A DNA stretch of 64,000 nucleotides from Mycobacteriales bacterium (GCA_035550655.1 DASZOU010000022.1:31096-95095), one strand, 5' to 3'; counted from the stretch's first letter, positions 14,298 through 49,293 are shown. Numbers and translations are program-made. The notes: generated by a model not told the origin, from the sequence alone.

Positions 14298-14455
14298 GTT
14301 CCCGTCCCCGGCCGGCTGGCACGCCGGGCGGTGCCGGCTGGTCGGTTCGACGCTATCGGCCGGGTCGCATCGCCTCGACGCGTTTTCCGACTGGTCCGCT
14401 CGGCTACACCCGACCTGTGGGCCACGACTATGGCGGCGGGAGCGGTACGCGAGCG

Positions 14456-16527: not shown

Positions 16528-16545
16528 CCAGGACATGATCCCGAC

Positions 16546-32741: not shown

Positions 32742-33245
32742 TTACCGGGCGTCGTCGCAGGCAGCAGTGCTACCCGCGACGGGTGACGTCGCGTGCGCCG
32801 TGTCCCGGACCGGCACCGCACCACCCGCATGCGTGATCCCGAGCCAGCCCAGCAGCCGCCCGAACGGCACCGTGACCTCGCCCCGCAACGCGACGGTCAC
32901 GGTCCCTCCCGCCACCGTGGTGTCGGGCGGATCCAGGTGCCGGAACGTGCGCGCGAGGTCCGGGCTGCGCTGCTCGATCGAGTCACGAGCCATCTTCGCG
33001 GCGCGGGCCGGGTCGAGCGGGAGCGACCCGCCGCAGCGCAGCTCGGGCCCGTCGTAGACCCGGTCGGTGTCGACACCTTGCGCCGCGTCGATCGCCGCGG
33101 CGTCCGCGGCCGACGACAGCGCCCGCTCCGCGAGGAACACCTTCGACACGTCGATGCCGGCGACGATCAACGCGACGGCGATCGCCGTGTAGCCGATGAC
33201 CAGCACCGCGAGCGATCCGTCATCGCGGCCACCCGCTACTCGCAC
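32742..33245 (-). CDS. TadE/TadG-like pseudopilin / pilus-assembly protein
   Basis: N-terminal hydrophobic TadE-type segment (…SLAVLVIGYTAIAVALIVAGIDVS…) followed by a soluble domain. Third of three consecutive TadE-like genes; start uncertain. Confidence 0.5.
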   Translation of the reverse strand: MRVAGGRDDGSLAVLVIGYTAIAVALIVAGIDVSKVFLAERALSSAADAAAIDAAQGVDTDRVYDGPELRCGGSLPLDPARAAKMARDSIEQRSPDLARTFRHLDPPDTTVAGGTVTVALRGEVTVPFGRLLGWLGITHAGGAVPVRDTAHATSPVAGSTAACDDAR

Positions 33246-33706
33246 GACGCGTCCGGTACGCCGGTGCCGGAGTAGCAGCTGATCCGTTCCGAGTGGTGTG
33301 CGCTGACGCCGATCGCCGCGACGCAACGGCCGCGGCACATCCAGACAGGCACCAGCGGGATCGGGACCTGAGCGCCGAGCGACACGGTGAACCGCGAACC
33401 CGGCGCGTAGTCGCACGCGCCACAGTCGACGACCCGCCCGTGCGGCGACCAGCGCACACCTTCGTCACGCAACGCGAGCGCGACCGCGGCCTCCGCCCGC
33501 CGCTCACCCAAGTCGTCGGCGCCGGCCGTGGCGTAGGCACGAGCAGCGTCGCGCGCTGCTGCCGTCATGCCGAACGCCGCCCGCTGCACGGTGACCGCGG
33601 TCATCACGACGTATCCGAGCGGCACGAGCAGCAACACGGAGAGGAAGACGAACTCGACGAGCGCGCTGCCGGTGTCGCCGCCGAGCCGCTCGCCCTGGTT
33701 CGTCAC
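33236..33706 (-). CDS. TadE-like protein
   Basis: GDTGSALVEFVFLSVLLLVPLGYVVMTAV TadE/prepilin-like N-terminus. GTG start overlaps the upstream stop (GTGA). Confidence 0.6.
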   Translation of the reverse strand: MTNQGERLGGDTGSALVEFVFLSVLLLVPLGYVVMTAVTVQRAAFGMTAAARDAARAYATAGADDLGERRAEAAVALALRDEGVRWSPHGRVVDCGACDYAPGSRFTVSLGAQVPIPLVPVWMCRGRCVAAIGVSAHHSERISCYSGTGVPDASCE

Positions 33707-34110
33707 GACTGGGCTTCGAGCAGGGCGTGTCCGGTCGCGTGGACGGTCGGACCGACCGGCAGGAACCACGCGAGCAGTGGCAACCGAGCCGTCACCTCGA
33801 TCGTCACGACCTGGGCGCCGTCGACCGAGTCCTGCGAGCGGGCCGCAACCGCGTGGGCGTACGACGGGCCCAGCGCCTCCTTGATCTCCCGGTTGGCCGC
33901 AGCAGCCGCCGCCGTTGCGCTCGCGACATCCGCGTTGGCGCCGTACCTCGCGCCGTCCGCAACACACGCTGCCAGCACGTTGCGCACGTGGTAGTCCACG
34001 CCGACCTGCAGGACAGCCAGGAACAGCAAGGTGACGAGCGAGCCGACGAGGACGAACTCGACGGCCGCAGAGCCGGTGTCGGCGGCCGCGGAGCCGCGAC
34101 CGGTGCTCAC
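33703..34110 (-). CDS. TadE-like protein
   Basis: GSAAVEFVLVGSLVTLLFLAVLQVGVDYHVRN TadE-type N-terminus. GTG start overlaps the stop of the small upstream ORF. Confidence 0.6.
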   Translation of the reverse strand: MSTGRGSAAADTGSAAVEFVLVGSLVTLLFLAVLQVGVDYHVRNVLAACVADGARYGANADVASATAAAAAANREIKEALGPSYAHAVAARSQDSVDGAQVVTIEVTARLPLLAWFLPVGPTVHATGHALLEAQS

Positions 34111-34307
34111 TGGCTCGGGTCGCCCGCAATGTTCAGCGCGTTCGTGAGCAGGTTGCGCAGCGTCGGCTCGGCAACGACCCACAAGGCGACGACGATCCCT
34201 GCCGTCATCATCGTGATCAGCACCCAGCCGGGGACGTCGCCCCGGTCGCGGTCGTTGGCGATCCGGAACCCCAGCGACCGCCACCACGCCTGCACCGAAC
34301 TCCTCAT
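34107..34307 (-). CDS. Small membrane protein in the flp position of the tad locus (putative Flp-like pilin, 66 aa)
   Basis: ATG 34307 is preceded by GGAGG. The product is MRSSVQAWWRSLGFRIANDRDRGDVPGWVLITMMTAGIVVALWVVAEPTL…, with a charged leader and one hydrophobic helix. The canonical G/XXXXEY motif is absent, so it is Flp-like only by position and size. Confidence 0.4.
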   Translation of the reverse strand: MRSSVQAWWRSLGFRIANDRDRGDVPGWVLITMMTAGIVVALWVVAEPTLRNLLTNALNIAGDPSQ

Positions 34308-34335
34308 GACTGCACCCTCCTGTCGAGACGGATCG

Positions 34336-35274
34336 TCACGGCACTGCAAGACGCAGGCCGTAGAAACCGGGAAAGAGCGCGAACACAACGGTCACGGGGA
34401 GGACGAAGAACACGACGGGGACGAGCATCGCGATCTCCTTTCGACCGCCGGCTTCGAGCAACGCCCGGCGACCCTCCTCACGCGCGTCGGCCGCTTGGGC
34501 GCGCAAGACGTCCGCCATCGGCGTCCCGCGCTCGACGGCGATCGCCATGCCGTCGACGAACCGGATCACGGCCGGCAGCGCCGTCCGCGTCGCGAGCGAC
34601 TCGAGAGCGGACACGAGGGTTGCACCGGCTCGGCTGTCGGCCAGGACCTGGCGGATCTCCGCCGCGAGCTCGCCGGTCGCAGTCCGCGAGACCCGCTCGA
34701 GCGCGCTCACCGGGCTCTCGCCCGCCCCTACGGCGAGCGCCAGAAGCTCCGCGATCGTCGGGAACTCCGCAACCATCCGCGCCTCACGTCGACGTACCTC
34801 ACGAGTGAGCAGGTGGTCGCGCACCATCACGCCGAACAGGCCGAACACCACCGCGAGAACCAGCAGCGCGACCGGTGACCGGTGCGCGCCACGAACCGCT
34901 GCGACCACCGACAACACGAGCCCGACCGCCAGCCCGACGGCGCCATACAGCACCTGCTCGACCCGGAATGCTTCGAGTGTCATCCGGCCACCGGCGCGCA
35001 GCAGCCGTCGCCGCACCGACGCTGCGCCACCGATCCAGCCGTCGACGCGACGGGCGAGGTGTTTGAGGGTCGGGCCCAGCAGCCGTTCAACGGCGCCGAA
35101 CGACGTCGTCGGGGCCGTTGTCGCGAGCAGCCGTGACTGCCGGGGCGTGTCGGTGAGGTACGGCGCCAGCCGATCGTCGAGTCGCGCCCTTCGCATCGGG
35201 GGGCTCGATCGAAGCGCCAGCCACAGCCCGCTGCCGCTGACCGCACCCAGTCCGGCTCCGGCCGGCGACCACAT
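34336..35274 (-). CDS. tadC: Type II secretion system F-domain protein TadC
   Basis: T2SSF domain (…ELLALAVGAGESPVSALERVS…). ATG start shares 1 nt with the tadB stop. Confidence 0.75.
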   Translation of the reverse strand: MWSPAGAGLGAVSGSGLWLALRSSPPMRRARLDDRLAPYLTDTPRQSRLLATTAPTTSFGAVERLLGPTLKHLARRVDGWIGGAASVRRRLLRAGGRMTLEAFRVEQVLYGAVGLAVGLVLSVVAAVRGAHRSPVALLVLAVVFGLFGVMVRDHLLTREVRRREARMVAEFPTIAELLALAVGAGESPVSALERVSRTATGELAAEIRQVLADSRAGATLVSALESLATRTALPAVIRFVDGMAIAVERGTPMADVLRAQAADAREEGRRALLEAGGRKEIAMLVPVVFFVLPVTVVFALFPGFYGLRLAVP

Positions 35275-36125
35275 CACCGCAGCACCCGAACGTCGTCGGG
35301 GAGCCGGGCGACGAGCAGCATCACGCGATAGGCGAAGAAGGAGACGACGCCGCCGCACACCAGCACTGCGACACCCGCCGCGCTGTCATACGCCGCGACC
35401 GTCTGCGGCCGAAGTGAGAGCGTTGCGAGGACGAACCAGGGCGCTGAGAGCGCCAGCCGGGCCGCCGCAACGGTCCATCCCTGGCGGGTCTCCAGCTCCC
35501 CGCGGGTTCGGGCATCGTCGCGCAGGAACTGCGAGAGAGTGCGCAACAGCCGGCCGAGGTCGCTGCCCCCGACATCTCGTGCAATCCGAAGCGACTCGAT
35601 GATGCGGTCCGCCACCGGGTCCGCCAGCGACATCTTCAACCGGTCGAGGCAGTCGCCGAACCGGCCGGTCGCACGATGGTCGACGGCGAAGCGCTCGAAC
35701 TCGGGTCGCAGCGGCTCCGGGCCGCGTACCGCCAGCTGTGCGACCGCTTCCGGCAGTGACAGACCGGCGCGCACCGCCGAACCCAGGTTGTCGACGACGT
35801 CCGGCCAGAGCGCCCGCAGCTCGGCGACCCGCAACGACCGGCGGCGGCGAACCAGAGCAAGCGGCGCATAGCCGGCGAACCCGGCAAACGCTGCCGCGAT
35901 GGTGGCGGCCCGGCTGATGCCGGCCACCACGATGAAGGTCACGAACGCCGCTCCGGCGCACATGGCGTAGAGCTGCCTCGGGCGGATACCCGGCAAGCCC
36001 GCTTGGGCGAGCAGCTCGCGGGTGCCTTGGCCGGATTCGCGGGGCACCCCGCGCGGCGCGTCCCTGGCCGTCCACACCAACAAGCACCCGACACCGAACA
36101 TCAGGCCCAACAGCGCGCCGATCAC
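35274..36125 (-). CDS. tadB: Type II secretion system F-domain protein TadB
   Basis: 283 aa with the T2SSF domain (…LPEAVAQLAVRGPEPLRPEF…). Confidence 0.75.
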   Translation of the reverse strand: MIGALLGLMFGVGCLLVWTARDAPRGVPRESGQGTRELLAQAGLPGIRPRQLYAMCAGAAFVTFIVVAGISRAATIAAAFAGFAGYAPLALVRRRRSLRVAELRALWPDVVDNLGSAVRAGLSLPEAVAQLAVRGPEPLRPEFERFAVDHRATGRFGDCLDRLKMSLADPVADRIIESLRIARDVGGSDLGRLLRTLSQFLRDDARTRGELETRQGWTVAAARLALSAPWFVLATLSLRPQTVAAYDSAAGVAVLVCGGVVSFFAYRVMLLVARLPDDVRVLR

Positions 36126-37432
36126 GCCGTCCGCTCCTGCGCGAGCAGCTCGGCGAGGTCAACCCGCGCTGCGTCAAAGCGTTGCGGGTGCGGTGGCCAG
36201 CCGTCCGCCCGCACCAAATGACCGTTACGAGTCGTGAACAAGTCGGCGGTTTCGACGACGTCACCCTCGACCCGTCCGGGCACCGCGAGGATCTCCCGAA
36301 CCCGTCGCCGGCCTCGTCCGTCCCGGGCCAGGTGAATGACCAAGTCGACGCTCGCGGCGACCGTCGGAACCACGAACTGGTGGCTGACGTTCTCCCCCGC
36401 CAGCAGCGGCAGCGTGCAGAGCTTCGTCACGGCCTCGCGCGCCGAGTTCGCGTGCAAGGTGCACATGCCAGGCAGCCCGGAGTTGAGCGCGATCAACAGG
36501 TCGAGCGCCTCCTCCTGCCGGACCTCCCCCACGACGATCCGGTCCGGGCGCATTCGCAGCGCCTCTTTCACCAACCGGCGCAACCGCACCTCGCCCGTTC
36601 CTTCGAGGTTGGGTTGCCGGGTCTGCATCGCGACGACATCCGCCAGCTGCACCCGGAGCTCGAAGACCTCTTCGCAGGTGATCACCCGCTCGTGCGCAGG
36701 GACTGCCGAGACGAGGCAGTTGAGCATCGTCGTCTTCCCGGCTTGGGTTCCGCCGGCGACGATGATGTTGAGCCCTGCCACGACCGCGGCCTCGAGAAAC
36801 CGCGCGGCCTGGCGAGTGATCGTGCCGAGTGAGATGAGCTCTTCGAACGAGTGCGCCGACAAGACGAACTTGCGGATGTTGACCGCCCAGTCCGCGCGTG
36901 TGACGTCCGGGATCACGACGTGGAGCCGTTCGCCTCCAGGGAGCATTGCGTCGACGAACGGCGTGCTGAAGTCGACCCGCCGCCCCGAGGTCTTCAGCAT
37001 CCGCTCGACCAGGTCCTTGACTTGGGTCGCGTCGAGGATCGTGGTGGTCAGCTCGCTGCGGCCACGCCGCGCGACGAACACACGTCCGGGCTCGTTGATC
37101 CACAGCTCCTCGACTTCCGGGTCGTCGAGGTAGCGCTGCAACGGGCCGAACCCGGCGACGGCGTCGTACACCGCGCGGGCAACGCCTTCGGGATCGGCGA
37201 GCGGCGGCAGCGTGCTCGTCGCCGCCCGCTCGTCGTAGTCGGCCACCGCCTCGTCGACGAGGCGCTGCATCTCATGCGGAGCCGACACCGGGTCGAGGCC
37301 ACGACGACGGACCAGCTCACGGACCTCGTCCTCGACCAGAGCCCGCCCATCCACGGCGCGGAACGCTAGATGCGGCGGATGCCCGCGACAACCTCCAGTT
37401 GGAAAGCTGTGGAGGCCTTCGAGTTCCTGCAC
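36122..37432 (-). CDS. tadA: Tad/Flp pilus assembly ATPase TadA/CpaF (VirB11-family secretion ATPase)
   Basis: Walker A IVAGGTQAGKTT, Asp box, Walker B, His box (…GLPGMCTLHANSA…). GTG start at 37432; an alternative start at 37354 is possible. Confidence 0.9.
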   Translation of the reverse strand: MQELEGLHSFPTGGCRGHPPHLAFRAVDGRALVEDEVRELVRRRGLDPVSAPHEMQRLVDEAVADYDERAATSTLPPLADPEGVARAVYDAVAGFGPLQRYLDDPEVEELWINEPGRVFVARRGRSELTTTILDATQVKDLVERMLKTSGRRVDFSTPFVDAMLPGGERLHVVIPDVTRADWAVNIRKFVLSAHSFEELISLGTITRQAARFLEAAVVAGLNIIVAGGTQAGKTTMLNCLVSAVPAHERVITCEEVFELRVQLADVVAMQTRQPNLEGTGEVRLRRLVKEALRMRPDRIVVGEVRQEEALDLLIALNSGLPGMCTLHANSAREAVTKLCTLPLLAGENVSHQFVVPTVAASVDLVIHLARDGRGRRRVREILAVPGRVEGDVVETADLFTTRNGHLVRADGWPPHPQRFDAARVDLAELLAQERTA

Positions 37433-37458: not shown

Positions 37459-38166
37459 CTAAGGGACCCGCGCGAATGCGTTGAAGCGGTACCTCGCGTT
37501 GGCGTAGTTGGCGATCTGCTGGTCCTCGATGACGACGTCCGTGAGACCGGCGTCGCGCATCGCCTCCGCCATCCATTCGCGGTCGAAGCGGTGATCCAGT
37601 CCGTCGTACCGTTCGGCGTACGTCGCCGCGCCACCGAGCCGCTCTTGCCGGCCGGCGAGCGCCTCCGCCGCAGTGGCGAGATCGGGGACGTCCAGCACCG
37701 CGACCGCCCGCACCGCCTTGCGGGCCATGCGCTCGATGACGAGCCGCGCGTACTCGTACGACGGGAAGTAGAAGAAGACACTGCATGCCACGACCGCATC
37801 CACTGCCGGCTGAGTGTCGAGCTCAGCCGCCTCCGCGACAGTGAAGGCGGCGCCGGGCATGACACGCCTGGCGTCTTCGATCAGGCGCGCCGAGTAGTCC
37901 ACGCCACCGACATCGATCCCCGCGACGAAGGCCGGATAGAGAAAGGCACCCGAACCGCACCCGACCTCGAACAACGAGTCACCGGGGCGAAGCTCCAGGC
38001 GATTGCAGGTCCGACGGACGAAATCGGTCCACGCATCCTCGGTGATGGACCCGAACCCGGTATCGAATCCGTCGGCGGCGAGCATTCCTGCGAGTGGCGA
38101 CCTCGACTCGGCATCGTGCTCGACGCCATGACGGCTCCAGACCTCATGCCACCGGCTCTCCTTCAA
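37459..38166 (-). CDS. Class I SAM-dependent methyltransferase
   Basis: Motif I LFEVGCGSGAFLYPAFVAGIDVGGVDYS. The start is ambiguous: TTG 38166 overlaps the upstream stop (TTGA), while the first ATG is at 38085. Confidence 0.65.
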   Translation of the reverse strand: MKESRWHEVWSRHGVEHDAESRSPLAGMLAADGFDTGFGSITEDAWTDFVRRTCNRLELRPGDSLFEVGCGSGAFLYPAFVAGIDVGGVDYSARLIEDARRVMPGAAFTVAEAAELDTQPAVDAVVACSVFFYFPSYEYARLVIERMARKAVRAVAVLDVPDLATAAEALAGRQERLGGAATYAERYDGLDHRFDREWMAEAMRDAGLTDVVIEDQQIANYANARYRFNAFARVP

Positions 38167-39983
38167 GACGTTGTCACCCGGCTCAGGGCGTCGACAAGGC
38201 GCTCGTTGTCGGCAGGAAGCTTGACGGCGACCCGAATGAACTGCCCGTGCTCCAAGCCGGGCTTGCCGGTGCAGTCCTTCACCAGGATCGACTCGCCGAG
38301 CAGCCGTTGGGCGACGTCCGTTGCCGTCAGCGAGCCGGGCAGCTCGCAGAGCAGGTAGTTGCCGTGCGACGGCACGACCCGCAAGGAAGGGAGCTCGCTC
38401 AGGCTGCTGGCCAGCTCGTTGCGAGCACCGCGAAGCTGCGCACACGCCTTCTCATAGGCAGGCTCGTAGCGGCCCATGAGCTGCATGAAGTACTCACCGA
38501 AGGAGTTGATGTTCCACACGGCCCGATGTGCCCGAAGCCGCTGCAACAACTCGGAGTCGGCCGTCGCAACCACCCCCAGCCGGCACCCGGGAACGCCGTG
38601 CGTCTTGCCGATGCTCCTCACAAGGATCATGTTGGGGTAGGCGGCCAGGACCTCGTCGTCCACCAGCGAGGCGCAGTGATCGGGTTCCGCGAAATCGACG
38701 AACGACTCGTCGACGATGAGCCGCTTTCCGGCCGTCGCCATGTGCTTGGCCAACTGGAGCACCTCGAAGTCCGGCAAGCAACGGCCGGTCGGGTTGTCCG
38801 GGTTGACGAGGACGAGGACATCGGTGCGGTCGGAAAGGTCGAACAGGCTGGCCGGCTCGAGCCCGAAGTCAGGATCCGCCGAGGGCAGCTCCTCGATCTC
38901 GGCACCTGGAAACCGTTTGAGGTACTCCTCGAACGTCGGCACAGGTACGCCGACGCGTTCCGCCTCGAGGACTGTGCCGATCGCGGTGATCCACTCCGAG
39001 GCGCCGTTACCGACCGCTATCAACGACTCGTCGCACCCGAACATCTTTGCGGCGAGGTGGTCGACCACCCACGCCGCTGATGGGTAGTTCCGCAGTAGTG
39101 GATCGAACTCACGTCGCAGCTCGTCGACCATCTCCGGCGGCGGGAAGAACGGGTTGCTGAGGTAGCAGAAGTCGTGCAGCTCCGTGAACCGCCAGTACCC
39201 GCCATGGCGTTGCAGGTACGCGTCGTACTGCCTGTCCGGCGGCGCGAACAGCGTCTCCGCGATTCGGAGGTCCTGCAGGTCGTCGATCTCGTACCACTTC
39301 TCGTCGTCAAGCGTCATCGCTGCGAGGTTGTGCCGTTCGAGCGTCGCGATGACGCGCATCACTTCCTCGTAGTACTCGTTGTTGCCCATCGTGCGCACGT
39401 AGGCCTCGAGGAAGGGCAAGTACTCGTCCGCGAGGTACTCGCGGGAGAACTTGTAGATGTTGACCGTCTTGTAGTGCTGCGTCAGCGCGTCACGGTCGAA
39501 GGCGCGCTTCGGAACGAAATGGTCGATGGTCCCCTCGGGCGTGACGGTCACCACCGTGCCGTCCATCCAGCTGCGAAACCTGTCGACGACTGCGACGTTC
39601 GGCTGCGGGTGCTTGATCAGACGCGTGAGGATTCGAGGCTCGTAGATCAGGTCGCTCTCGAGGAGCAGGGTGTCGTCCTGCACGAGCTCGTCCCGCGCGA
39701 GGTAGAGCGAATGGATGTTGTTCGTGGTGTCGTAGACGGTGTTGTCGACGTACGAAACCGGAGTGCCGTTCCACTCCGTCCCGACAAGGTCTCGTACGCC
39801 CTGCGCCCCGTGCCCGACAACCAGGACGATGCGGTCCACGGCACCGGTGTCGACCAAGGCATCGAGGCTGCGTTCGATGAGCGTGCGGCCGTGAATGCTC
39901 ACCATGCACTTGGTGCGGTCCTTGGTGAGCGCGCCGAGCCTCCTTCCCATGCCTGCCGCGAGGATCAATGCCTGCATCGGCAC
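38163..39983 (-). CDS. Bifunctional fusion: N-terminal LicC-like cytidylyltransferase (NTP-transferase fold) + C-terminal HisC/CobD-like PLP-dependent class I/II aminotransferase-fold enzyme (606 aa)
   Basis: N-terminal ALILAAGMGRRLG…NNIHSLYLARDEL…WYEIDDLQDLRIAE parallels pneumococcal LicC (NNFYSLYLVKEEL…IYEIDSVQDY). C-terminal LVNPDNPTG and SIGKTHGVPGCRLG (PLP Lys) are the fold-type I aminotransferase/threonine-phosphate decarboxylase motifs. Confidence 0.8.
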   Translation of the reverse strand: MPMQALILAAGMGRRLGALTKDRTKCMVSIHGRTLIERSLDALVDTGAVDRIVLVVGHGAQGVRDLVGTEWNGTPVSYVDNTVYDTTNNIHSLYLARDELVQDDTLLLESDLIYEPRILTRLIKHPQPNVAVVDRFRSWMDGTVVTVTPEGTIDHFVPKRAFDRDALTQHYKTVNIYKFSREYLADEYLPFLEAYVRTMGNNEYYEEVMRVIATLERHNLAAMTLDDEKWYEIDDLQDLRIAETLFAPPDRQYDAYLQRHGGYWRFTELHDFCYLSNPFFPPPEMVDELRREFDPLLRNYPSAAWVVDHLAAKMFGCDESLIAVGNGASEWITAIGTVLEAERVGVPVPTFEEYLKRFPGAEIEELPSADPDFGLEPASLFDLSDRTDVLVLVNPDNPTGRCLPDFEVLQLAKHMATAGKRLIVDESFVDFAEPDHCASLVDDEVLAAYPNMILVRSIGKTHGVPGCRLGVVATADSELLQRLRAHRAVWNINSFGEYFMQLMGRYEPAYEKACAQLRGARNELASSLSELPSLRVVPSHGNYLLCELPGSLTATDVAQRLLGESILVKDCTGKPGLEHGQFIRVAVKLPADNERLVDALSRVTTS

Positions 39984-39991
39984 AGTCTCGA

Positions 39992-40798
39992 TCAGGGTTC
40001 GTCGAATGTCACCAACTCGGTATGCGTCTCTCGCGCATGCTCCGGCGGGGGCGTCATGTAGTCGTCCCCGAACTCGGCGCGCAGATAGGCGTCCGGGTCA
40101 GCCGGACCGGGCAGCGTGAGTCCACCCAGCCGCTGCGGACTGAGGGGGAAGATCACCTCCCTCGGCATGGCCGCCCAGATACCTGCGGCGCCGATGCCCA
40201 GCAAGTTGCCGTCGCGTTTCGACTGCCGCCAAGTCAGCCAGCGCTCGAGCAGTCGAGTCAGCCAGCCTGGTAGCTGCGCGACCAGCCACCACTTGGTCCG
40301 CTGCACTCCGCGCGGCAGCGCGGGCGACCGGGCCATGTGCGCGGCGTAGCTGGCGGTCTGCACGAGCAGGGCCATCGCTCGCTCGATGCGTCTCAGCACA
40401 GCGGACGTCGAGACCGGCACCACCGTCATGATGTCGATGAAGAGGCCGTCGTGCGCGGGGGCCGGAAGTTGGTGCAGGGCGTGGAAGGCGCTCGGCGCAT
40501 GGGTGCCGTTGATGTACACCTTGACGGTTGACGTGATCGCCGGGTCGTCGTGAGGGGTCTGCACGAGGTACGCCGGCCCTAACAGCGCGGGGGCCGCCGA
40601 GACGAATCTCTCGATGTCCCTGGGAAGCATGCAGAGATCGACGTCGTCGTCCCACGGGATCGGCGAGCCTTCCCTCACGGCGCCCAGGAGGGTCCCGCTG
40701 TCGATCCAGTAGGTCACGCCCAGCGCCTGGCAGACGCGGTCGACGTCGTGCAGCGCATCGAGAAGGGTGCGAAGCACGCGATTGCGGCGCCCGTCCAT
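39992..40798 (-). CDS. LicD-family phosphotransferase (phosphocholine / aminoalcohol-phosphate / polyol-phosphate transferase)
   Basis: LicD DxD signature GTLLGAVREGSPIPWDDDVDLCMLPRD. ATG at 40798 is preceded by AAAGGAG. The longer track ORF N-terminus is Arg-rich and antisense-like. Confidence 0.75.
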   Translation of the reverse strand: MDGRRNRVLRTLLDALHDVDRVCQALGVTYWIDSGTLLGAVREGSPIPWDDDVDLCMLPRDIERFVSAAPALLGPAYLVQTPHDDPAITSTVKVYINGTHAPSAFHALHQLPAPAHDGLFIDIMTVVPVSTSAVLRRIERAMALLVQTASYAAHMARSPALPRGVQRTKWWLVAQLPGWLTRLLERWLTWRQSKRDGNLLGIGAAGIWAAMPREVIFPLSPQRLGGLTLPGPADPDAYLRAEFGDDYMTPPPEHARETHTELVTFDEP

Positions 40799-40939: not shown

Positions 40940-42775
40940 GTGTTCCACATGGCCGCCGAGGCCGCGCCCGCCGGCGTGCCAGCCGATGCCGGGACGGCCC
41001 GACTCGGACCGGCGTACTCGCGGCTGCTGACCTACCCGGTGATGACGGCCGGCGCGCTCGCCGACTGCATCGCGTTCGCGATGAGCCGCAGCGGCGACGC
41101 AGGGGCCGCACCGCTGTACTGGCTCGGCCAGATCGCCCTCCTTCTTCCGTGCATCGTCATCTGCCTGCGCCGATCCGCGTCGCCGAAGAGCCGGATATGG
41201 GCACTGCAGCTGTTGGCGGCGCTCCAAAGTTTCGTCGCATGGGCGTACAGCCCGGACCGCTTCCGCTTCCCGGACGAGCTACAACATCTGCGGACGGCCG
41301 ACAACATCCTCGCCACCGGGCATCTGTTCAGCGCGAACCCCGCACTACCCGTCAGTCCGGGGTTCCCGTCGTTGGAGATCGTGACCACCGCCGTGAGCAG
41401 GTTGTCCGGCATGTCGGTGTACACCGCCGGCGTCATCACCTCATCGGTCGCGCACGTCCTGCTCGTGACTGCGGTCGTTTCTTGGGCCCACGCGCTGCGG
41501 CTCGGGTCACGCCAAGCTGCCGCAGCCGCGCTCGTCTTCGGATTCGCCCCCGACTACCCGTACTTCGACACCCTGTTCACCTACACCGCAATCGCGCTGC
41601 CGTTCTTCGTCCTTGCGGCCCGCGCCGCAGTCCGCTCAGTCACGCGACAGGATGCCGCCCTGCTCGTGCTGCCGCCGTTGCTGATCGCTGTCGTCAGCCA
41701 TCACCTCACCGGCTACCTTGCCTGCGGCTATGTCGCGCTCCTCGCCGCAACGTTGGCGATGGGGCGCCGGCCCGAGCCGTCGGCGCCGTGGTGGACGGCC
41801 CCTGGCGTTGCCTTGGTCGGCGTCGCCGGGGTGGGCGTGGTCTGCGCAGCAGCCTGGACAGCGGCCTTCGCCCCGCATGCGCTCGACTACCTGCTGACCC
41901 CGACCAAGGCCGCATTGCACGCAGTGTTCAGCCCGAGCGGATCGGCCGCAGGCGATGTCGCCGCACACGGCGAGGTTGCCCCGCTGTGGCAACGGGCCCT
42001 CGCCATCGCGGGCAGCGTCGTCATGCTGGGGCTGGCGGCGGTCGGCACGGTTCGGTTGTGGCGGTCACCCGTGCCCCGCTGGGTGCAGCTGCTCGCGGGC
42101 GGCGCGATCGCCTACCCCGCCGTCCTCGTCATCCGGGTGGTCGCTGCGGACGGTCCCGAGATCGCGTCTCGGCTCCTGGTCTACGCGATGCTGCTGACCT
42201 GCCTGCCCGTGGCCGCCCTGCTGGTCGCCGTGTGGGCCGACGGCACCTCGCGGGGACGCGTCGTGATCGCCTTGACCCTCGCCGTCACGATCGCGGCGGG
42301 ATCAACGGTGGCCGCGACCCCTTCCCCCTGGGAACGCCTACCCGGGTCGTTCCACGTCGCCGCAGAGGAGAGCGGCGTCGATGCGCGGGTCGCGGCCGCG
42401 GCCCACTACGGAGACCGGACGTTCGCCCCCGGCAGCGTCGTCGCCTGCGACCTGTCGCTGTGCAGCCTCCTCGGCGGCGAGTCCAAGGCGATCACCAGCA
42501 GCGCGTCGGCACCGATGTTCTTCGCCCCGACGGACATCCTGCGCAATGGCGAGATCAGCCGGCTCGGGCTGGACTACGTGCTGGTCGACGACCGGTTGAC
42601 GCAGCAGCTTCCCGCCTTCGGTCTGTACTTCCCCGGCGAGAACAACACAGGCGGATACCCGCGACCTTTCCCACCCGCCCGTCTCGCGTCCTTCGCCACC
42701 GACCCGCTATACAGCCGGGTCTACGACAACGGGGACATCCAGATCTACGACGTGTCCGCGGTGTGGAATGTCTAG
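40940..42775 (+). CDS. Large polytopic membrane protein (611 aa), candidate glycan polymerase/transferase of unknown family
   Basis: More than 12 predicted TM segments and a C-terminal soluble domain. Divergent from licD. Confidence 0.55.
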   Translation: MFHMAAEAAPAGVPADAGTARLGPAYSRLLTYPVMTAGALADCIAFAMSRSGDAGAAPLYWLGQIALLLPCIVICLRRSASPKSRIWALQLLAALQSFVAWAYSPDRFRFPDELQHLRTADNILATGHLFSANPALPVSPGFPSLEIVTTAVSRLSGMSVYTAGVITSSVAHVLLVTAVVSWAHALRLGSRQAAAAALVFGFAPDYPYFDTLFTYTAIALPFFVLAARAAVRSVTRQDAALLVLPPLLIAVVSHHLTGYLACGYVALLAATLAMGRRPEPSAPWWTAPGVALVGVAGVGVVCAAAWTAAFAPHALDYLLTPTKAALHAVFSPSGSAAGDVAAHGEVAPLWQRALAIAGSVVMLGLAAVGTVRLWRSPVPRWVQLLAGGAIAYPAVLVIRVVAADGPEIASRLLVYAMLLTCLPVAALLVAVWADGTSRGRVVIALTLAVTIAAGSTVAATPSPWERLPGSFHVAAEESGVDARVAAAAHYGDRTFAPGSVVACDLSLCSLLGGESKAITSSASAPMFFAPTDILRNGEISRLGLDYVLVDDRLTQQLPAFGLYFPGENNTGGYPRPFPPARLASFATDPLYSRVYDNGDIQIYDVSAVWNV

Positions 42776-43565
42776 CTTCCCGCGCACTCGCTCCGATCTC
42801 GTCGCTCTCGGGCTCCTTGCGCTGGGCGGCGGCGTCGCCGACATCGGGGCAGCCGGGTGGAGCGGGCCCGTACCGGCGGCGGTGGTGCTCGCAACCGCCT
42901 TCCTCGGGCCCGGCCTGGCCTGGCAGAACCTTCGCGGCACCCTCCGCTCCGGCCCGGTCAGCCTCGGCCTCGCCGCTGCCATCAGCACCGGCTGCCTCAT
43001 CACCCTCGGGCTCGGGATGAACGCCGCCTCAGTTGCGCTGAGCCGCAGCCATTGGGCGACGGCGCTCGCCGCGGTCGTCATCGGGTTGGCCGTCGCCGCG
43101 CTGATCCGGCCCCGGCGGATGCTGTTCGATCGCGAGCTTGGGCAAGACGCCGCCGCAACGCCCCGTCGCGTCAGCATTGCCGCGATCTGCGCCTTGTGCG
43201 CGGTGCTGGCCGCGAGCGGCGGGCGGATCGCCTGGTCGAGCCAGCAGCACTGGCTGGCCCGCCAGCACTACACCGAGCTCTACGCCACCGCGACCACGAC
43301 CGGCGAGCTGGTGACGGTCAACAACCATGAAGGCAACCAGGTCAGCTATGTAGCCAGAATCGACGCGGCGGGACAGCCTGCCGCGGTTGTCCGCTTCACC
43401 CTGCCGCAAGGTGGGACGTGGCGGCGCACGGTTGTTGTCCAACCAAGCGAGGTGACAACCGACAGGCCGCTGCTGCAGGTCGAGCTGGCGCGCGACGGTG
43501 TGCCCGGGGTGTACCGCTGGATCAGACTCATCCGACCACAGCCCTCGGCGTCGGCAGCCGGCTGA
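42768..43565 (+). CDS. Membrane protein with C-terminal extracytoplasmic beta-rich domain (unknown function)
   Basis: About 5 TM segments then a ~110-aa soluble domain. Overlaps the upstream gene by 8 nt. Confidence 0.5.
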   Translation: MSSFPRTRSDLVALGLLALGGGVADIGAAGWSGPVPAAVVLATAFLGPGLAWQNLRGTLRSGPVSLGLAAAISTGCLITLGLGMNAASVALSRSHWATALAAVVIGLAVAALIRPRRMLFDRELGQDAAATPRRVSIAAICALCAVLAASGGRIAWSSQQHWLARQHYTELYATATTTGELVTVNNHEGNQVSYVARIDAAGQPAAVVRFTLPQGGTWRRTVVVQPSEVTTDRPLLQVELARDGVPGVYRWIRLIRPQPSASAAG

Positions 43566-43674
43566 GCGCTGGGCCGCGAGACCGCCGCGAAATAGGCTGA
43601 TCACTCGGCGCAAGCCCCGGGATCGGCCCGCCCAGCCCGCGAGCTCGACGGCAAGTACGGAAGGGGTGCCAGGC

Positions 43675-44505
43675 GTGGATCCACTGCCCGGGTTGGCGCC
43701 GGCCGACGTCGACGAAGCCGCGGCGGTCGTCGAACAGCTGTGGTCCGCGACCAGCAGCCGGCTCGCCGTGTTTCGAGTGCCAGTGCTCGCGTTGCGGCAC
43801 CGACGCCTGCTCACGGCCCTCTCGCGGGCTCTCGGGCAGCTTCCGATCCTGCGAGTGCAACCGTCCCGGTCACCGGCGGGTCAGGAGCTCACGGCGTTGC
43901 TGCTCGGTCCGCACTGGCGGGCCGACTCGGGTCGTCGCCTTCCAGAGCTTCGCGTGCGCATCGGCGGCCGGCTGCTGCGGATGCCCGACCGGCGCGCCGC
44001 CGTCGCCGTACTTGAGCTGCCAGCCGATCCCGCGGAATACCTGGCAGGCCGGAAGAAGCAGGCGCTGCGCACCAACCTCGCACACGCTCGCGAACACGGC
44101 ATCACGGTCAGCGAGATCGTGGCTGGGGCCGAACAGCTCGACTGCATCGAACAGGTGCTGGTTGCTCGCGAGGACGAGTGGTGGGCCAAGTACGAGAGCT
44201 GGTTGCGGCGCGTGGTTGACGCGAGACTCGTGCGGCTTTTCGCGGGCCGCGGACCCGACGGCGCGGTTCTGACCGTTGCCCTCGTGGTTCCGGACGCGCC
44301 GTGGGCGATGCTGCGCCTGTTCGTGAGCACACCGGACGACCTCGCCGGTTATGCCAGGTACTCGACCCACGCCTTCATGGTGGAAGCGCTGGCGAAAGCC
44401 GGTGTCCGCACCCTGCTTGTCGACACCGTCTTCGATGCTCCCCCAGGTGTGCGCTACTTCCAGAGCCGGCTGGGCTTCGAGCTGGCAAACATCGCGGTCG
44501 GGTAG
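43675..44505 (+). CDS. FemAB/CelD-like (BioF2-like, GNAT-fold) acyl/aminoacyl-transferase family protein
   Basis: …AEYLAGRKKQALRTNLAHAREHGITVSEIV… is the Acetyltransf_6/CelD-type motif. GTG 43675 is placed 9 nt after a GGAAGGGG Shine-Dalgarno; the start is uncertain. Confidence 0.55.
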   Translation: MDPLPGLAPADVDEAAAVVEQLWSATSSRLAVFRVPVLALRHRRLLTALSRALGQLPILRVQPSRSPAGQELTALLLGPHWRADSGRRLPELRVRIGGRLLRMPDRRAAVAVLELPADPAEYLAGRKKQALRTNLAHAREHGITVSEIVAGAEQLDCIEQVLVAREDEWWAKYESWLRRVVDARLVRLFAGRGPDGAVLTVALVVPDAPWAMLRLFVSTPDDLAGYARYSTHAFMVEALAKAGVRTLLVDTVFDAPPGVRYFQSRLGFELANIAVG

Positions 44506-44512
44506 CGCCGCC

Positions 44513-45625
44513 ATGCAAGCCCGAGTCATCCCGCTGGCGGACCTGAGCCTCGCCGACGAGTCCAAGTGGGCCGCGCTCGCCGAACGAGCCGCCGAGCCCA
44601 ATCCGTACCTCGAGCCGGACTGCGTCCTCCCCGCCTGGCGCCATCTGCCCGAAGCATCGGACCTGCGTTTGGTCGTGGCGGAGCACGCCGACCAGTTCCT
44701 GGCATGCCTTCCCATCGGCTCGCCCCAGCCGTGGAGCCGGCTGCACCGCGCCGCACTGATGGGCCGGGCGGACACGACATCCATATTGCTCAGCACCCCG
44801 TTGGTGGATCCGGCCGGAGGTCTGGATGCCGTAACGGTGTTGCTACAAGGAATCCGCGACCAGGGTCGGGCCCTCGGCGCAGGTTTGCTGGTGTTGGACT
44901 GGCTCGGAGACGACGGGACAGTCGGCCCCCTGCTGCGCGAAGCCGCCGCAGGGCTCCGGATGCCCCGGTCGGAACTGTGGCCGTGGCAGCGGCCAGCAAT
45001 GTTTCGCAAAGCTGACCCCACCGAGTACTGGCTGCGCGAGCTCGGCCATCAGCACCAACGCAAGATCCAGCAGAAGCGCCGTCAGCTGGCCAAGCAGATC
45101 GGACCGCTCGAAGTGGTCGACCGGGCCGGCGACCCTTCGGCCGTCGCGGAGCTCATCCGGCTGGAAGCCACCGGATGGAAGCAGACTTCACCCGAGGGCG
45201 AGGCATTCGCGCGCCGAGAGGCGACGGTGCGGTTCTTCACCGAGCTGTGTGAGCGGTTCGCTGCCTCCGGCCGACTCGTTCTGCTCTCGTTGCAGTCCGC
45301 GGATCGCGCCGCCGCCATGCTGTGTTGCCTGCGGTCCGGAGAAGGACTCTTCGCCTATCGGATCGGCTTCGACGAGGCGCTGGGGCGCGGCAGCCCGGGC
45401 GTGCAGGTCTTCCTCGACGCCATGGCCTACCTGCACCGGGAGACCGACGCGGCGTTTCTGGATTCCTGCACCACACCGGACAACCGCTACCTGCCGGATC
45501 TGTTGCCCGACACCCGCAGCCTGACGACGATGGTGATCGCGATCGGCGGCGCGCTCGATCGGGGCTTCGTCCGGGCCCTCCCTCTGCTCTCAGCCGCGCA
45601 ACGAGCGTCTGGCCGGACGCCGTGA
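44513..45625 (+). CDS. FemAB/CelD-like (BioF2-like, GNAT-fold) acyl/aminoacyl-transferase family protein
   Basis: 370 aa; …YWLRELGHQHQRKIQQKRRQLAKQIGPLEVV… is the same family motif. Paralog of the preceding gene. Confidence 0.65.
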   Translation: MQARVIPLADLSLADESKWAALAERAAEPNPYLEPDCVLPAWRHLPEASDLRLVVAEHADQFLACLPIGSPQPWSRLHRAALMGRADTTSILLSTPLVDPAGGLDAVTVLLQGIRDQGRALGAGLLVLDWLGDDGTVGPLLREAAAGLRMPRSELWPWQRPAMFRKADPTEYWLRELGHQHQRKIQQKRRQLAKQIGPLEVVDRAGDPSAVAELIRLEATGWKQTSPEGEAFARREATVRFFTELCERFAASGRLVLLSLQSADRAAAMLCCLRSGEGLFAYRIGFDEALGRGSPGVQVFLDAMAYLHRETDAAFLDSCTTPDNRYLPDLLPDTRSLTTMVIAIGGALDRGFVRALPLLSAAQRASGRTP

Positions 45626-46935
45626 CGGCCCGGCGATCGATTCGAGTGCCGCAGGCACTGACCCGAGAACGCGCCGCGAGCCTCGCGGCCAGCCCGGTCA
45701 TTCGCGGCACCGCCTTCCTCTACGGCAGCACGATCACCACGAGTGTTCTCGGTTTCTTCTTCTGGTTCGTCGCCGCCCGACTGCTGACGCCGGAAGAAGT
45801 CGGCGCCGGATCAGCGGCCCAGTCGGCCGCTCAGCTCTGCGCGACGATCGGCATCCTCGGCCTCGGCACGCTCACCATCGCGGAGCTCGCGACGGATCGA
45901 AGCAAGGTCCGCCAGCTCGTGTCGGCCACGTGTCTCGTCGCAGCGATCGCGTCCACTGCGGCCGGCGTGGTGACAGGCGTCGTGCTCACTCACACGAGCC
46001 GTCATCTCGACGCCGTCGTCGGCGGCTGGCTGCCGTTGACCACTTTCGCGCTGCTCGCCGGTACGACCGCCGCCGGTCTGGTTCTCGACGATGCCTGCAT
46101 CGGCCTCCTGCGCGGCGAGATCCAACTCGTGCGCAACGCCGTGTTCGCGGCGGCGAAGCTCGCCTTGCTACCGGTGGCGATCTATGCCGGTGGATTCGGC
46201 CACGGCCGCCAGATCATTGTGGTCTGGCTGCTCGCCAGCGCGGGCTCGCTGGTCGTCGCGTACGGCCTGATCCGACGACGAACCGAGCCCGCGACGTGGC
46301 GGCCAGACCTGTCCAACCTGATCGCAAAGCGCCGGTTGATCTGGAGCCACCACCTGCTCAACGTCGCCGTCCTGGCTCCCGGGCTCGCCGCTCCGGTCGT
46401 CGTGACGACCCTCGTGGGACCCAGCGCAAACGCGGGCTTCTACACCGCGCTGCTCGTCACCAACTTCGTGAACATCATCCCGAGCCAGCTGGCGACCACG
46501 TTCTTCGCGCTCGCCCCGGGCGACGAAGCGGCGCTCGCACGCGAGATCCGCATCACGCTTCGGGTCTCGGTCGCCGTCTCGGTGGCGGCCGCGGTGCTGT
46601 TCGGGTTCGGCTCACACCTGATTCTTCACGTGTTCCGGCGAAGCTACGTGTCCGCTGCGCCCGCGATGGCGCTGCTCGGATTCGCCACTTTTCCCTACGC
46701 GATCAAGTCGCACTTCGTGGGCATCACCAGAGTTCAGGGCCGAATGCAGCGAGGGGCGGCGTTTGCAGCGCTCGCTGCGATCATCGAGATCGTTGGCGCG
46801 GTCATCGGGACAAGCCTCGACAACGTGACCGGCGCGGCCGCCGGACTGCTGACCGCACTCGTCTTCGAGTCGCTGCTGTTCGGTCCGACGGTGCTGTCCG
46901 CGCTCCGCGGACAGCAGCCATCAGCGTCGACGTGA
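45622..46935 (+). CDS. Polysaccharide biosynthesis protein / MOP-superfamily flippase (Wzx-like)
   Basis: 437 aa, ~14 TM with a duplicated architecture. GTGA coupling to the upstream gene. Confidence 0.75.
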   Translation: MTARRSIRVPQALTRERAASLAASPVIRGTAFLYGSTITTSVLGFFFWFVAARLLTPEEVGAGSAAQSAAQLCATIGILGLGTLTIAELATDRSKVRQLVSATCLVAAIASTAAGVVTGVVLTHTSRHLDAVVGGWLPLTTFALLAGTTAAGLVLDDACIGLLRGEIQLVRNAVFAAAKLALLPVAIYAGGFGHGRQIIVVWLLASAGSLVVAYGLIRRRTEPATWRPDLSNLIAKRRLIWSHHLLNVAVLAPGLAAPVVVTTLVGPSANAGFYTALLVTNFVNIIPSQLATTFFALAPGDEAALAREIRITLRVSVAVSVAAAVLFGFGSHLILHVFRRSYVSAAPAMALLGFATFPYAIKSHFVGITRVQGRMQRGAAFAALAAIIEIVGAVIGTSLDNVTGAAAGLLTALVFESLLFGPTVLSALRGQQPSAST

Positions 46936-47904
46936 GGACACGCGCCGGAGCGCCGCGGCGCCACGGGTGAGCGCGCGCCGGAGCCTTGCCGGCAGCATCA
47001 CGGACGCCAGGAAGAACACCCAAGCGCGCCAGCCCGCTGATCGCTCGGCAAGCACGCTTCGTGCGATGCGCCCGGCGCCGCGCCAGTCCCGCTGGGCTAC
47101 CGCGAGAACGCCGGTGACGCACAGCAGACCGTCGCCGTGTTCCCGCGGCGTCAGACCAGCGCGCTGCCCCTCGAACCAGTCGCGACTGAGCCGCCAACCC
47201 GCCCGCGACGAGGCGGAGTCGCCCGCGGCAGCGACGGTGTAGTCAAGCAGCACCTGGTCCAGCATGAGGACCGCAGTGGACGGATCGGCGGCGAGAAGCA
47301 GCAAGGTCTCCCAGTCCTCGTGCAGATGCGTCGCGCTGGTCGCCCTTGCCCGCTGCGCAGCGTCTCGGCTGAGCAGCATCATCGACGCCGCGACGGTTGT
47401 CTCCCCGGGTCGAATCTCCCGACGGACAAACAGGTAGTCGGCAAGCCGTTCACCGGGCCGAAGCACGCGGCGTGGCACGGTCTGGATGAACCGGCCGTCG
47501 GAATCGACCAGGTTCATCCGGCACAGCACCACGACGTTGCCGGCCAGCTCGGCCTTCGCCGCCTCCGCGGCCGCGACCTGGCGACGGATCTTCTCCGGAT
47601 GCCACCTGTCGTCGTCGTCGAGAAAAGCGATGTAGTCGGCGCCCGCGGCCGCATCGATCGCAGCCGCCCGAGCCGCCCGTGGACCTCGGCGTCGATCCGA
47701 CTCGATGATCCGCAGCCGCGGCTCGTCGGGCAACGCGGCGGCGAGCTCACCCGGTGCGGGGCCGTCCACGCTGACCACGACCGCGACGTCGCGATAGGTC
47801 TGCTGCAAGGCGCTTTGCACCGCCCTCACGACATGGGGCGCGCCAAGGGTGGGCACCACGACGACGACCCGCGGTCCGGTCCGGGAACCGTCACTCGAGG
47901 CCAT
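46921..47904 (-). CDS. Family 2 glycosyltransferase
   Basis: GT-A motifs VVVVPTLGAPHVVRAVQSALQQTYRDVAVVVSVDGP and IAFLDDDDRWHPEK (DxD). Start at ATG 47904. Confidence 0.8.
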   Translation of the reverse strand: MASSDGSRTGPRVVVVVPTLGAPHVVRAVQSALQQTYRDVAVVVSVDGPAPGELAAALPDEPRLRIIESDRRRGPRAARAAAIDAAAGADYIAFLDDDDRWHPEKIRRQVAAAEAAKAELAGNVVVLCRMNLVDSDGRFIQTVPRRVLRPGERLADYLFVRREIRPGETTVAASMMLLSRDAAQRARATSATHLHEDWETLLLLAADPSTAVLMLDQVLLDYTVAAAGDSASSRAGWRLSRDWFEGQRAGLTPREHGDGLLCVTGVLAVAQRDWRGAGRIARSVLAERSAGWRAWVFFLASVMLPARLRRALTRGAAALRRVSSRRR

Positions 47905-48143
47905 CCATCCGCCGTTCACAGAGAGTCGGATCTGAGGTGACGCTATCGGCCTTCGATCCGCCCGCGTCCTCGACCGGGCGAGCCTCGTTAGGACAAGACG
48001 AACCCCCACGGTTCATCGCCTGCCGTCACAAGGCAAGCAAGTCCGCCGTTTCCGGCGAACGGCTTGGTTGTCCGCAGACGTCGGGCGGCGGACCACCCGT
48101 CCGGCGGATCACCAACTCGGGACAAGGGATCGAGACAGTCATC

Positions 48144-49289: not shown

Positions 49290-49293
49290 CGGT

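Follow-up and report, generated by a model that had tools for sequence, protein, structure and literature searches.

Can a bacterium decorate its envelope glycans with a phosphodiester-linked aminoalcohol without depending on choline uptake? The question is raised by three genes at positions 37459-40798 of a 64,000-nucleotide stretch of DNA from Mycobacteriales bacterium (GCA_035550655.1 DASZOU010000022.1:31096-95095; hereafter the window, at its full length), encoding (i) a LicD-family phosphotransferase, (ii) a fusion of a cytidylyltransferase and a pyridoxal 5'-phosphate (PLP) enzyme, and (iii) a class I S-adenosylmethionine (SAM)-dependent methyltransferase. Zwitterionic decorations of the phosphoethanolamine/phosphocholine type shape the recognition of microbial surfaces by immune systems, phages, and antimicrobial peptides. 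Bacteria are known to obtain them from two sources, choline import (the Lic pathway) or membrane phospholipids (EptA/PptA-type enzymes); de novo synthesis in the cytoplasm, starting from phosphoserine and carried out by a single fused protein, would, if true, constitute a third. The fusion belongs to a very widespread family for which no published function was found in the full-text literature searched, a body of literature that does not extend to subscription journals. As judged from sequence, its product is most likely cytidine diphosphate (CDP)-ethanolamine derived from phosphoserine, the head group of which is probably methylated and would then be attached to a surface sugar polymer. The interest of the system rests on the breadth of the fusion family and not on the window locus itself.

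Architecture of the Cassette

The cassette comprises three close-packed genes on the minus strand, pointing in the same direction, the reading frame of each being backed by the G+C pattern at third codon positions. The LicD gene (39992-40798, minus strand) encodes 268 residues, with a match to PF04991, and its ATG is preceded by the ribosome-binding site AAAGGAG. The fusion gene (38163-39983, minus strand) encodes an N-terminal LicC/PntC-like cytidylyltransferase half (residues 1 to ~250; 39234-39983), matched by PF12804 and PF00483, and a C-terminal CobD-like fold-type I PLP half (residues ~251-606; 38163-39233), for which TIGR01140 is the best model. The methyltransferase gene (37459-38166, minus strand) encodes 235 residues matched by Methyltransf_11/12/25/23. 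A preliminary description of this DNA had proposed these domain assignments together with a co-directional, tightly packed arrangement, and both are confirmed, with small corrections of the coordinates.

The fusion can be read as 606 residues from GTG 39983 or as 604 residues from ATG 39977, leaving a gap of 8 or 14 nucleotides after the LicD stop. The ATG, used by the identical database protein P0001 and in agreement with the family N-terminus MQAxILAAG, is likely the true start. The fusion stop (TGA, 38165-38163) overlaps the methyltransferase start (TTG 38166) in the sequence TTGA, as the preliminary description had noticed for the two genes, and the conservation of W6/W10 at the methyltransferase N-terminus across 43 homologs favours this TTG over an ATG located 27 codons downstream. 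Within the trio, stop and start codons either overlap or lie 8-14 nucleotides apart.

The Cytidylyltransferase Domain

The Pfam families NTP_transf_3/NTP_transferase span residues 5-239 of the fusion, and the N-terminal half matches in the PDB the structures of LicC (1jyk, E = 1.6e-10) and PntC-AEPT (6pd1, E = 1.4e-9). The signature GxG(T/S)Rx4-8PK occurs as GMGRRLGALTKDRTK, with TK replacing PK and K25 invariant, and the multiple alignment places the LicC motifs GxGxRL...K, NNxxSLY, and WYEIDD in the same order in the fusion. Across the family, the invariant elements comprise K25 of GxGxRL...TK, NNxxSL, ESD, YYE, and WYEID.

Which head group could this domain accommodate? Tde-PntC contacts the primary amine of aminoethylphosphonate through Glu104 and Glu196, whereas LicC displays the smaller Asp at both pocket positions (D105 and D192), leaving space for choline (Rice et al., PMC6697681). 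The corresponding pocket of the fusion family is formed by the invariant E109 (LLLESDLIY) and Y204-Y205-E206 (NEYYEQV), with E109 unambiguously equivalent to Tde-PntC E104 and E206 equivalent to E196 and the LicC Asp position upon a one-residue choice of register. The two-Asp choline pocket of LicC is thus replaced by Glu at both positions. The preliminary description of this half as a motif-for-motif parallel of LicC consequently stands for the motifs and the fold, and fails for the pocket, which is Glu/Glu as in PntC rather than Asp/Asp. The pocket looks fitted to a small primary amine rather than to choline, and because it is PntC-like, phosphocholine is unlikely to be handled directly by the cytidylyltransferase. 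The ESD/YYE pocket is identical in fusions linked to the methyltransferase and in unlinked ones, and the pocket residues, considered as a separator of the two groups, provided no discrimination.

The PLP-Dependent Domain

The Pfam family Aminotran_1_2 spans residues 312-600 of the fusion, which carries the motifs LVNPDNPTG and SIGKTHGVPGCRLG as first quoted. Among the NCBIfam models, the best match of the fusion is TIGR01140 (CobD), at 197 bits and below the equivalog cutoff of 290.55, followed by hisC (TIGR01141), at 148.7 bits and short of its cutoff of 276.55. The CobD over HisC ranking is preserved in 9/9 family members, the window fusion and eight others, the CobD cutoff being reached in none, and no curated NCBIfam model spans the full-length fusion. 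The profile comparison called for by the preliminary description therefore places the domain on the decarboxylase side, below the CobD cutoff.

Pairwise searches concur. In a phmmer search of the PDB, the PLP half matches 6oux, titled 'Structure of SMUL_1544, a decarboxylase from Sulfurospirillum multivorans', with 140 bits (E = 4e-40) and Salmonella CobD (1lc5) with 120 bits (E = 4e-34), compared to 43-71 bits for the entries from E. coli, Thermotoga, Medicago, and M. tuberculosis, which we take to be validated HisC enzymes. By blastp, SMUL_1544 scores 100-169 bits and E. coli HisC 48-91 bits in 18/18 members (67 bits for HisC with the window fusion), and SMUL_1544 stands above Salmonella CobD in all 18. 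SMUL_1544 and the fusion have the motifs CYLSNP(Y/F) and WNIN(S/G) in common, and work attributed to Keller et al., from 2016 and 2019, is said to establish SMUL_1544 as a decarboxylase of O-phospho-L-serine.

The residues invariant in the family comprise K460, the Schiff-base lysine, the NPxNPxG motif (NPDNPTG here), DESF, R468, and R584. K460 aligns with the lysine of the CobD SLTK motif, and the conserved K569 and R584 each have an arginine as their counterpart in CobD, two residues that presumably bind the substrate phosphate. The AlphaFold2 (AF2) model of the fusion (predicted local distance difference test score, pLDDT, 91; predicted template modelling score, pTM, 0.86) finds in Foldseek its best whole-chain match in PntC-AEPT (6pd2), and its PLP half superposes on CobD, with a template modelling (TM) score of 0.86 and a root-mean-square deviation (rmsd) of 2.2 Å, and also on SMUL_1544. 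Taken together, the PLP half is CobD-like and a predicted O-phospho-amino-acid decarboxylase; in the material compared, no residues diagnostic of O-phospho-L-serine versus O-phospho-L-threonine, or of decarboxylase versus transaminase, were established.

Two other activities have to be weighed for this domain. It could use O-phospho-L-threonine, and the group transferred would then be (R)-1-aminopropan-2-yl phosphate, with or without methylation. Among the NCBIfam models, the best is indeed that of the threonine-phosphate decarboxylase CobD, and the superposition on the Salmonella enzyme equals that on SMUL_1544; nevertheless, the pairwise scores and common motifs described above favour SMUL_1544, no PduX-type threonine kinase gene is seen among the annotated open reading frames (ORFs) of the window, and phosphoserine is a general metabolite whereas phosphothreonine is not. 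Aminopropanol phosphate is also not known as a glycan substituent, unlike phosphoethanolamine and its derivatives, and we regard the threonine-derived group as unlikely. The likeliest substrate is instead O-phospho-L-serine, given its central place in metabolism and the fact that, among relatives of solved structure, the phosphoserine decarboxylase of Sulfurospirillum stands closest.

Alternatively, the domain could be an aminotransferase that converts dihydroxyacetone phosphate (DHAP) into serinol phosphate, subsequently CDP-activated and transferred. The two Campylobacter enzymes Cj1436 and Cj1437 presumably fall in the same HisC/CobD superfamily. Cj1437, which forms (S)-serinol phosphate from DHAP, is a characterised enzyme of a glycan pathway (PMC11800397); the score of the fusion below the CobD equivalog cutoff and the likeness of the catalytic residues for both reaction types also speak for a transaminase. 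Against it, all profile hidden Markov model (HMM), pairwise, and structural comparisons, Cj1436 and Cj1437 lying outside them, rank characterised decarboxylases above HisC-type transaminases, and decarboxylation of phosphoserine is preferred, transamination being rather improbable.

LicD and the Distribution of the Fusion Family

LicD passes the Pfam gathering threshold for PF04991 (83.4 bits, cutoff 22.6, E = 3e-23) with a match that covers only the N-terminal half of the profile, and tblastn aligns it over almost its full length with the LicD proteins adjoining other fusions. Its motif WDDDVDL aligns with WDYDVDL, the catalytic DxD region of FKRP (PDB code 6kaj), in agreement with the DxD-bearing LicD-family transferase recognised initially. 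LicD is thus predicted to take a phospho-aminoalcohol from its CDP-linked form and transfer it to a glycan or glycolipid acceptor.

Is the fusion an oddity of this genome? It is not; the family is very large and taxonomically broad. A first homology search with the fusion returned 8000 scored candidates, the best 120 clusters of which (at least 627 bits, 47-61% identity, ~600 residues) contain both domains except for three truncated entries and include Nocardioides, Methanosarcina, Treponema, Alistipes, and Proteobacteria. The fusion is found in Bacteroidales, methanogens, spirochaetes, and actinobacteria. The family is accordingly widespread, and yet neither a description of the fusion nor a published function was found in the literature searched, nor was any characterised LicC-CobD fusion, of which the preliminary description had likewise known none.

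Scans yielded 15 loci from reference genomes and 80 from metagenomes, and the survey comprised 60 non-redundant loci containing a full-length fusion with at least 2 kb on both sides, partners being scored within 10 kb. A LicD homolog occurs in 32 of the 60 loci, a TagF-like (Glyphos_transf) gene in nine, and a CDP-OH_P_transf gene in two; at least one of these CDP-alcohol-type phosphotransferases is present in 41/60. The recognised partner is always of the class that consumes a CDP-activated alcohol phosphate, which indicates that the fusion makes a CDP-linked donor and constitutes the strongest support for the proposed activity. The co-occurrence with licD that the preliminary description had wished to see surveyed is therefore frequent, and the logic it had laid out, from aminoalcohol phosphate through activation by cytidine triphosphate (CTP) to LicD transfer, is backed by the conserved pairing.

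The neighbourhoods disclose further arrangements. In 21/60 loci, mainly from gut Bacteroidales, Methanosarcina, and Lentisphaerae, the fusion is immediately followed by a member of the ornithine-cyclodeaminase/mu-crystallin or octopine-dehydrogenase family, with LicD often coming next (loci L019-L021, 11818-14111; L001, 11841-12779; L008, 11817-12749; L018, 11880-12821; L002, 11898-12854; and many of L032-L096). This suggests an opine-type (N-carboxyalkyl) tailoring of the aminoalcohol phosphate in those lineages, and the position of the gene fits a free amine on the product, tailored differently by lineage. Groups of a similar kind, 2-[(1-carboxyethyl)amino]ethyl phosphates, have been reported on some Proteus O-antigens. 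Another pairing, seen in Nocardioides and in several contigs from metagenomes, has a CDP-alcohol phosphatidyltransferase of PF01066 in place of LicD, in some cases accompanied by a GT2 gene (L016, 9036-9812; L017; L022, 7103-7861; L063; L103, 12384-13430). It hints at a possible second, Kennedy-like use of the same CDP-aminoalcohol, with a lipid or some other alcohol as acceptor.

Locus L023 (8001-14749) has, immediately downstream of the fusion and LicD, all the genes of an aminoethylphosphonate pathway, encoding a phosphoenolpyruvate (PEP) mutase with a fused NTP_transf_3 domain, a phosphonopyruvate decarboxylase, and an aminotransferase of class V. Does the cassette then belong to phosphonate metabolism, leading from phosphonoalanine to aminoethylphosphonate, or to cobamide metabolism of the CobD-CobY type? 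The juxtaposition in L023 of the fusion and LicD with the PEP mutase, Ppd, and AEPT genes, and the fact that NTP_transf_3 also includes CobY-type enzymes, could be read in this way; however, the L023 PEP mutase has its own fused nucleotidyltransferase, the majority of fusion loci are devoted to polysaccharides and lack PEP mutase, and neither PEP mutase nor cobamide genes are present among the annotated ORFs of the window. This context makes the assignment highly improbable, and the L023 arrangement is better described as phosphate-ester and phosphonate head-group modules side by side.

FemAB-like/Acetyltransf_6 genes occur near the fusion in three unrelated loci, the window (44351-45625), L023 (5340-8000), and L103 (7558-8538), that of L023 being fused to a Wzz/tyrosine-kinase-like protein. 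Loci L011, L012, and L014, from Desulfobulbales/Desulfobacterales, contain a more distant relative of the fusion (match 10001-11950, 31-34% identity) in which the N-terminal frame stops after ~274-281 residues while the tblastn alignment runs on to residue ~606, representing either a split two-gene version or a frameshift. Genes without Pfam matches follow or are coupled to the fusion in L024 (7136-8065, 309 residues) and L026 (5628-7001, 457 residues) and may encode further tailoring enzymes.

The Methyltransferase

The preliminary description had likened the methyltransferase to the plant/Plasmodium phosphoethanolamine methyltransferases (PMT), a reading that the comparisons do not sustain. 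The AF2 model (pLDDT 92.7) displays a generic class I fold only, and the best PDB sequence matches are unannotated methyltransferases. Arabidopsis PMT (5wp4) is matched by phmmer with 23 bits (E = 4.7e-4) over residues 49-111 only, a part of the Rossmann domain, and PmtA (8ys9) weakly, with E = 2e-3. In Foldseek, dozens of C-, N-, and O-methyltransferases reach a TM score of ~0.6, with PMTs at ranks 30 and 47 and PmtA at rank 48, their scores of ~0.57-0.59 being the same as those of unrelated C- and O-methyltransferases. PMT-type membership was rejected, no specific similarity extending beyond the SAM-binding core.

The genomic context is more informative. The methyltransferase forms a small family of ~80 clusters, each of 230-250 residues, with conserved N- and C-terminal elements of its own, and it stands beside the fusion, CDP-OH_P_transf, or LicD in all ten contexts read. 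L025 preserves the LicD-fusion-methyltransferase order of the window, with a 4-nucleotide overlap; L026 displays the order fusion-x-methyltransferase, x being an intervening gene; and L071, L094, and L103 also pair the methyltransferase with the fusion, in L103 in the order fusion-methyltransferase-CDP-OH_P_transf. In the Joint Genome Institute (JGI) contig ElGGCYPV, two tandem methyltransferase paralogs (genes 1685-2401 and 2374-3117) adjoin a 603-residue fusion, a doubling that would fit stepwise methylation by two enzymes, and a second JGI contig comprises the methyltransferase, a 603-residue protein, and LicD. In L027, L028, and L103, the methyltransferase adjoins CDP-OH_P_transf and/or LicD; where the family member is more distant, as in two cases, it immediately follows a CDP-OH_P_transf gene, and in one of these LicD genes flank it. 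The methyltransferase thus accompanies the head-group machinery in every context read, which points to the head group as its substrate and ties it functionally, by synteny, to the module in which the preliminary description had placed it. It is missing from 54/60 fusion loci, and the nearest relatives of the window fusion (L024, L016, L022, and L023; 56-60% identity) lack it, suggesting an accessory enzyme that has joined the core more than once.

It is also conceivable that the fusion and LicD act as proposed while the methyltransferase acts elsewhere, for instance in sugar O-methylation, the decoration being plain phosphoethanolamine. Sugar O-methyltransferases are common in polysaccharide loci, and both the generic fold, devoid of any PMT- or PmtA-specific signal, and the many fusion loci without the gene agree with such a role. 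The small size of the family, its invariable position beside the fusion or CDP-OH_P_transf/LicD, often with overlapping codons, and its location between the fusion and CDP-OH_P_transf in L103 argue the other way, so that sugar methylation deserves to be kept in mind as a minority explanation while methylation of the head group is preferred.

Proposed Pathway and Relation to Known Systems

We consider it somewhat probable, with a little better than even confidence, that the three-gene cassette serves to attach an aminoalcohol, through a phosphodiester, to a glycan or glycolipid of the envelope, with no dependence on choline uptake. In the first step, the CobD-like domain would decarboxylate O-phospho-L-serine to phosphoethanolamine, as its homology suggests, or, alternatively, O-phospho-L-threonine to aminopropanol phosphate. 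The N-terminal domain of the same polypeptide would then condense this product with CTP to yield the CDP-aminoalcohol. In the third step, the translationally coupled methyltransferase may methylate the head group, most plausibly on nitrogen, a role proposed from conserved synteny only; methylation probably takes place after CDP activation or after transfer because the cytidylyltransferase pocket is small. Finally, as family membership and co-occurrence suggest, LicD would take the phospho-aminoalcohol off its CDP donor and link it to a sugar hydroxyl on the acceptor polymer, probably the product of the divergent polysaccharide cluster.

Several points weigh against this pathway. Every chemical step is inferred, and no assayed member of the fusion family was found. 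The PLP domain constitutes a sister subfamily below the CobD cutoff (197 versus 290.55 bits), whose reaction type could differ, and in Campylobacter serinol phosphate is made by transamination (Cj1437) while phosphoserine is decarboxylated by Cj1436 (PMC11800397). A recognised phosphotransferase is absent from 19/60 loci, which may reflect the limited tblastn query set, and the methyltransferase is without a specific relative of known function.

A broader and more tentative proposal, possible in our estimation but on balance doubtful, is that the fusion represents the entry enzyme of an unrecognised, very widespread bacterial and archaeal route in which phosphoserine is converted into phosphoethanolamine and then into CDP-ethanolamine. 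Such a route would parallel the Kennedy pathway while requiring no kinase and neither ethanolamine nor choline. It would feed LicD, TagF-like, and CDP-alcohol phosphotransferases, followed by lineage-specific tailoring, including N-methylation here, possibly as far as phosphocholine made de novo in the absence of choline, and N-carboxyalkylation of the opine type in methanogens and in Bacteroidales of the gut. The fusion occurs in many gut Bacteroidales, in methanogens of rumen and gut, in spirochaetes, and in actinobacteria from soil; if the assignment is true, many uncharacterised capsule, exopolysaccharide, and N-glycan loci would become interpretable, the fusion would serve as a genetic marker for predicting such decorations, and it would provide a simple two-substrate enzyme (phosphoserine and CTP) for making CDP-aminoalcohols. 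The methyltransferase family would in turn be a candidate for choline-independent phosphocholine-like epitopes.

The cassette enzymes fall outside the memberships of LicC (by the pocket), CobD (by the cutoff), HisC, PMT, and PntC-AEPT, and resemble several of these systems in part. In PntC-AEPT from Treponema denticola (Tde1415; 6pd1/6pd2), as in the fusion, a LicC-like cytidylyltransferase at the N-terminus is joined to a fold-type I PLP enzyme at the C-terminus, which supplies the 2-aminoethyl-phosphorus substrate, and it also has the Glu/Glu amine pocket and LicD-like transferases nearby. Unlike PntC-AEPT, its best whole-chain structural match, the fusion contains a class I/II Aminotran_1_2/CobD-like PLP domain, predicted to be a decarboxylase, instead of a class V aminoethylphosphonate transaminase, no PEP mutase accompanies it among the annotated ORFs of the window, and the identity is 16-17%. 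By analogy, the fusion architecture can be regarded as the phosphate-ester counterpart of PntC-AEPT of the aminoethylphosphonate pathway.

The Lic1 system (LicA/LicB/LicC/LicD) of Streptococcus pneumoniae and Haemophilus likewise proceeds by CTP activation of a phospho-aminoalcohol and LicD-family transfer to a glycan, and the LicC motifs GxGxRL, NNxxSL, and YEID are kept in the fusion, as is the PF04991 match in LicD. The window cassette differs in lacking a choline transporter and kinase, the precursor being predicted to arise de novo from the fused PLP enzyme, and in having Glu where LicC has Asp, with a LicC match of only ~E = 1e-10. By analogy, the cassette would correspond to a Lic1 system in which de novo synthesis takes the place of uptake and phosphorylation.

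The CobD-type decarboxylases comprise Salmonella CobD, acting on phosphothreonine, and SMUL_1544 and Campylobacter Cj1436, acting on phosphoserine, the latter for capsule. CobD and SMUL_1544 provide the best HMM, sequence, and structure matches of the PLP half, which preserves the catalytic lysine, the PLP-binding motifs, and basic residues at the two positions aligned to CobD arginines, whereas the score below the equivalog cutoff, the fused nucleotidyltransferase, and the absence of a cobamide context set the fusion apart. Cj1436 exemplifies O-phospho-amino-acid decarboxylation already used in glycan biosynthesis (PMC11800397); there, ethanolamine phosphate proceeds to amide formation and not to CDP activation and phosphodiester transfer. 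With plant/Plasmodium PMT and PmtA, the methyltransferase has the class I SAM fold in common and nothing specific beyond the Rossmann core.

Genomic Surroundings

The window has a G+C content of 69%, with a dip to 0.64 at 38-40 kb. Recent horizontal transfer was ruled out as its cause, since the third-position G+C (GC3) of the fusion, 0.87, is like that of its neighbours, and the dip therefore stems from codon positions 1 and 2, reflecting amino-acid composition. A scan of the region with the sigma-70 consensus, which is poorly suited to actinobacteria, found no promoter.

The preliminary description had pointed to an unbroken continuation of the operon into tad pilus genes. The adjacency is real, with no terminator-like site between the methyltransferase and tadA, and it does not recur in L025, the only other locus with the same three-gene order, where an unrelated regulator follows; tad genes were noted at none of the other surveyed fusion loci. 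The first possible tadA start, GTG 37432, lies 26 nucleotides past the methyltransferase stop, and an alternative, GTG 37354, leaves a gap of 104 nucleotides. The first 17 codons after GTG 37432 have a low GC3 (~0.59), so that tadA may really start at GTG 37354. The adjacency is best treated as lineage-specific, with co-transcription possible, and a functional link between the cassette and the Tad pilus was rejected in view of L025 and the other surveyed loci. The tad locus (32742-37432) includes a small ORF with a hydrophobic pilin-like segment (34107-34388) and TadE/TadG-like genes; no TadZ/CpaE-type ATPase was found upstream of tadA, a position occupied by the decoration cassette. Following tadA are tadB, tadC, the candidate pilin ORF, the tadE/G-like genes, prfB, ftsE, ftsX, a Ctp protease gene, and smpB.

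On the other side, a divergent polysaccharide cluster (40940-53705) is a candidate source of the acceptor glycan, its membership in the module being presumed. It comprises a 611-residue membrane protein without a Pfam match, the Acetyltransf_6/FemAB-like gene (44351-45625), a Polysacc_synt flippase (45322-46935), four GT2 genes, and two GH26-like genes. The latter, convergent and with weak matches to mannanase-type GH26 enzymes (47937-50517), suggest a mannan-like polymer or a processing hydrolase. Among the annotated ORFs of the window, a set with gaps, there is no choline kinase or PEP mutase and no LicB-like gene near the cassette, consistent with the earlier statement that LicA, LicB, and PEP mutase are lacking.

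A separate cluster ~20 kb away (14246-18338) comprises a CMAS-type cyclopropane/mycolic-acid methyltransferase, a DUF1295/PEMT-like membrane protein, an APH-family phosphotransferase (16528-17562), and a class I methyltransferase (17514-18338). APH is a kinase superfamily that also contains choline/ethanolamine kinases, and the cluster looks like one for lipid modification.

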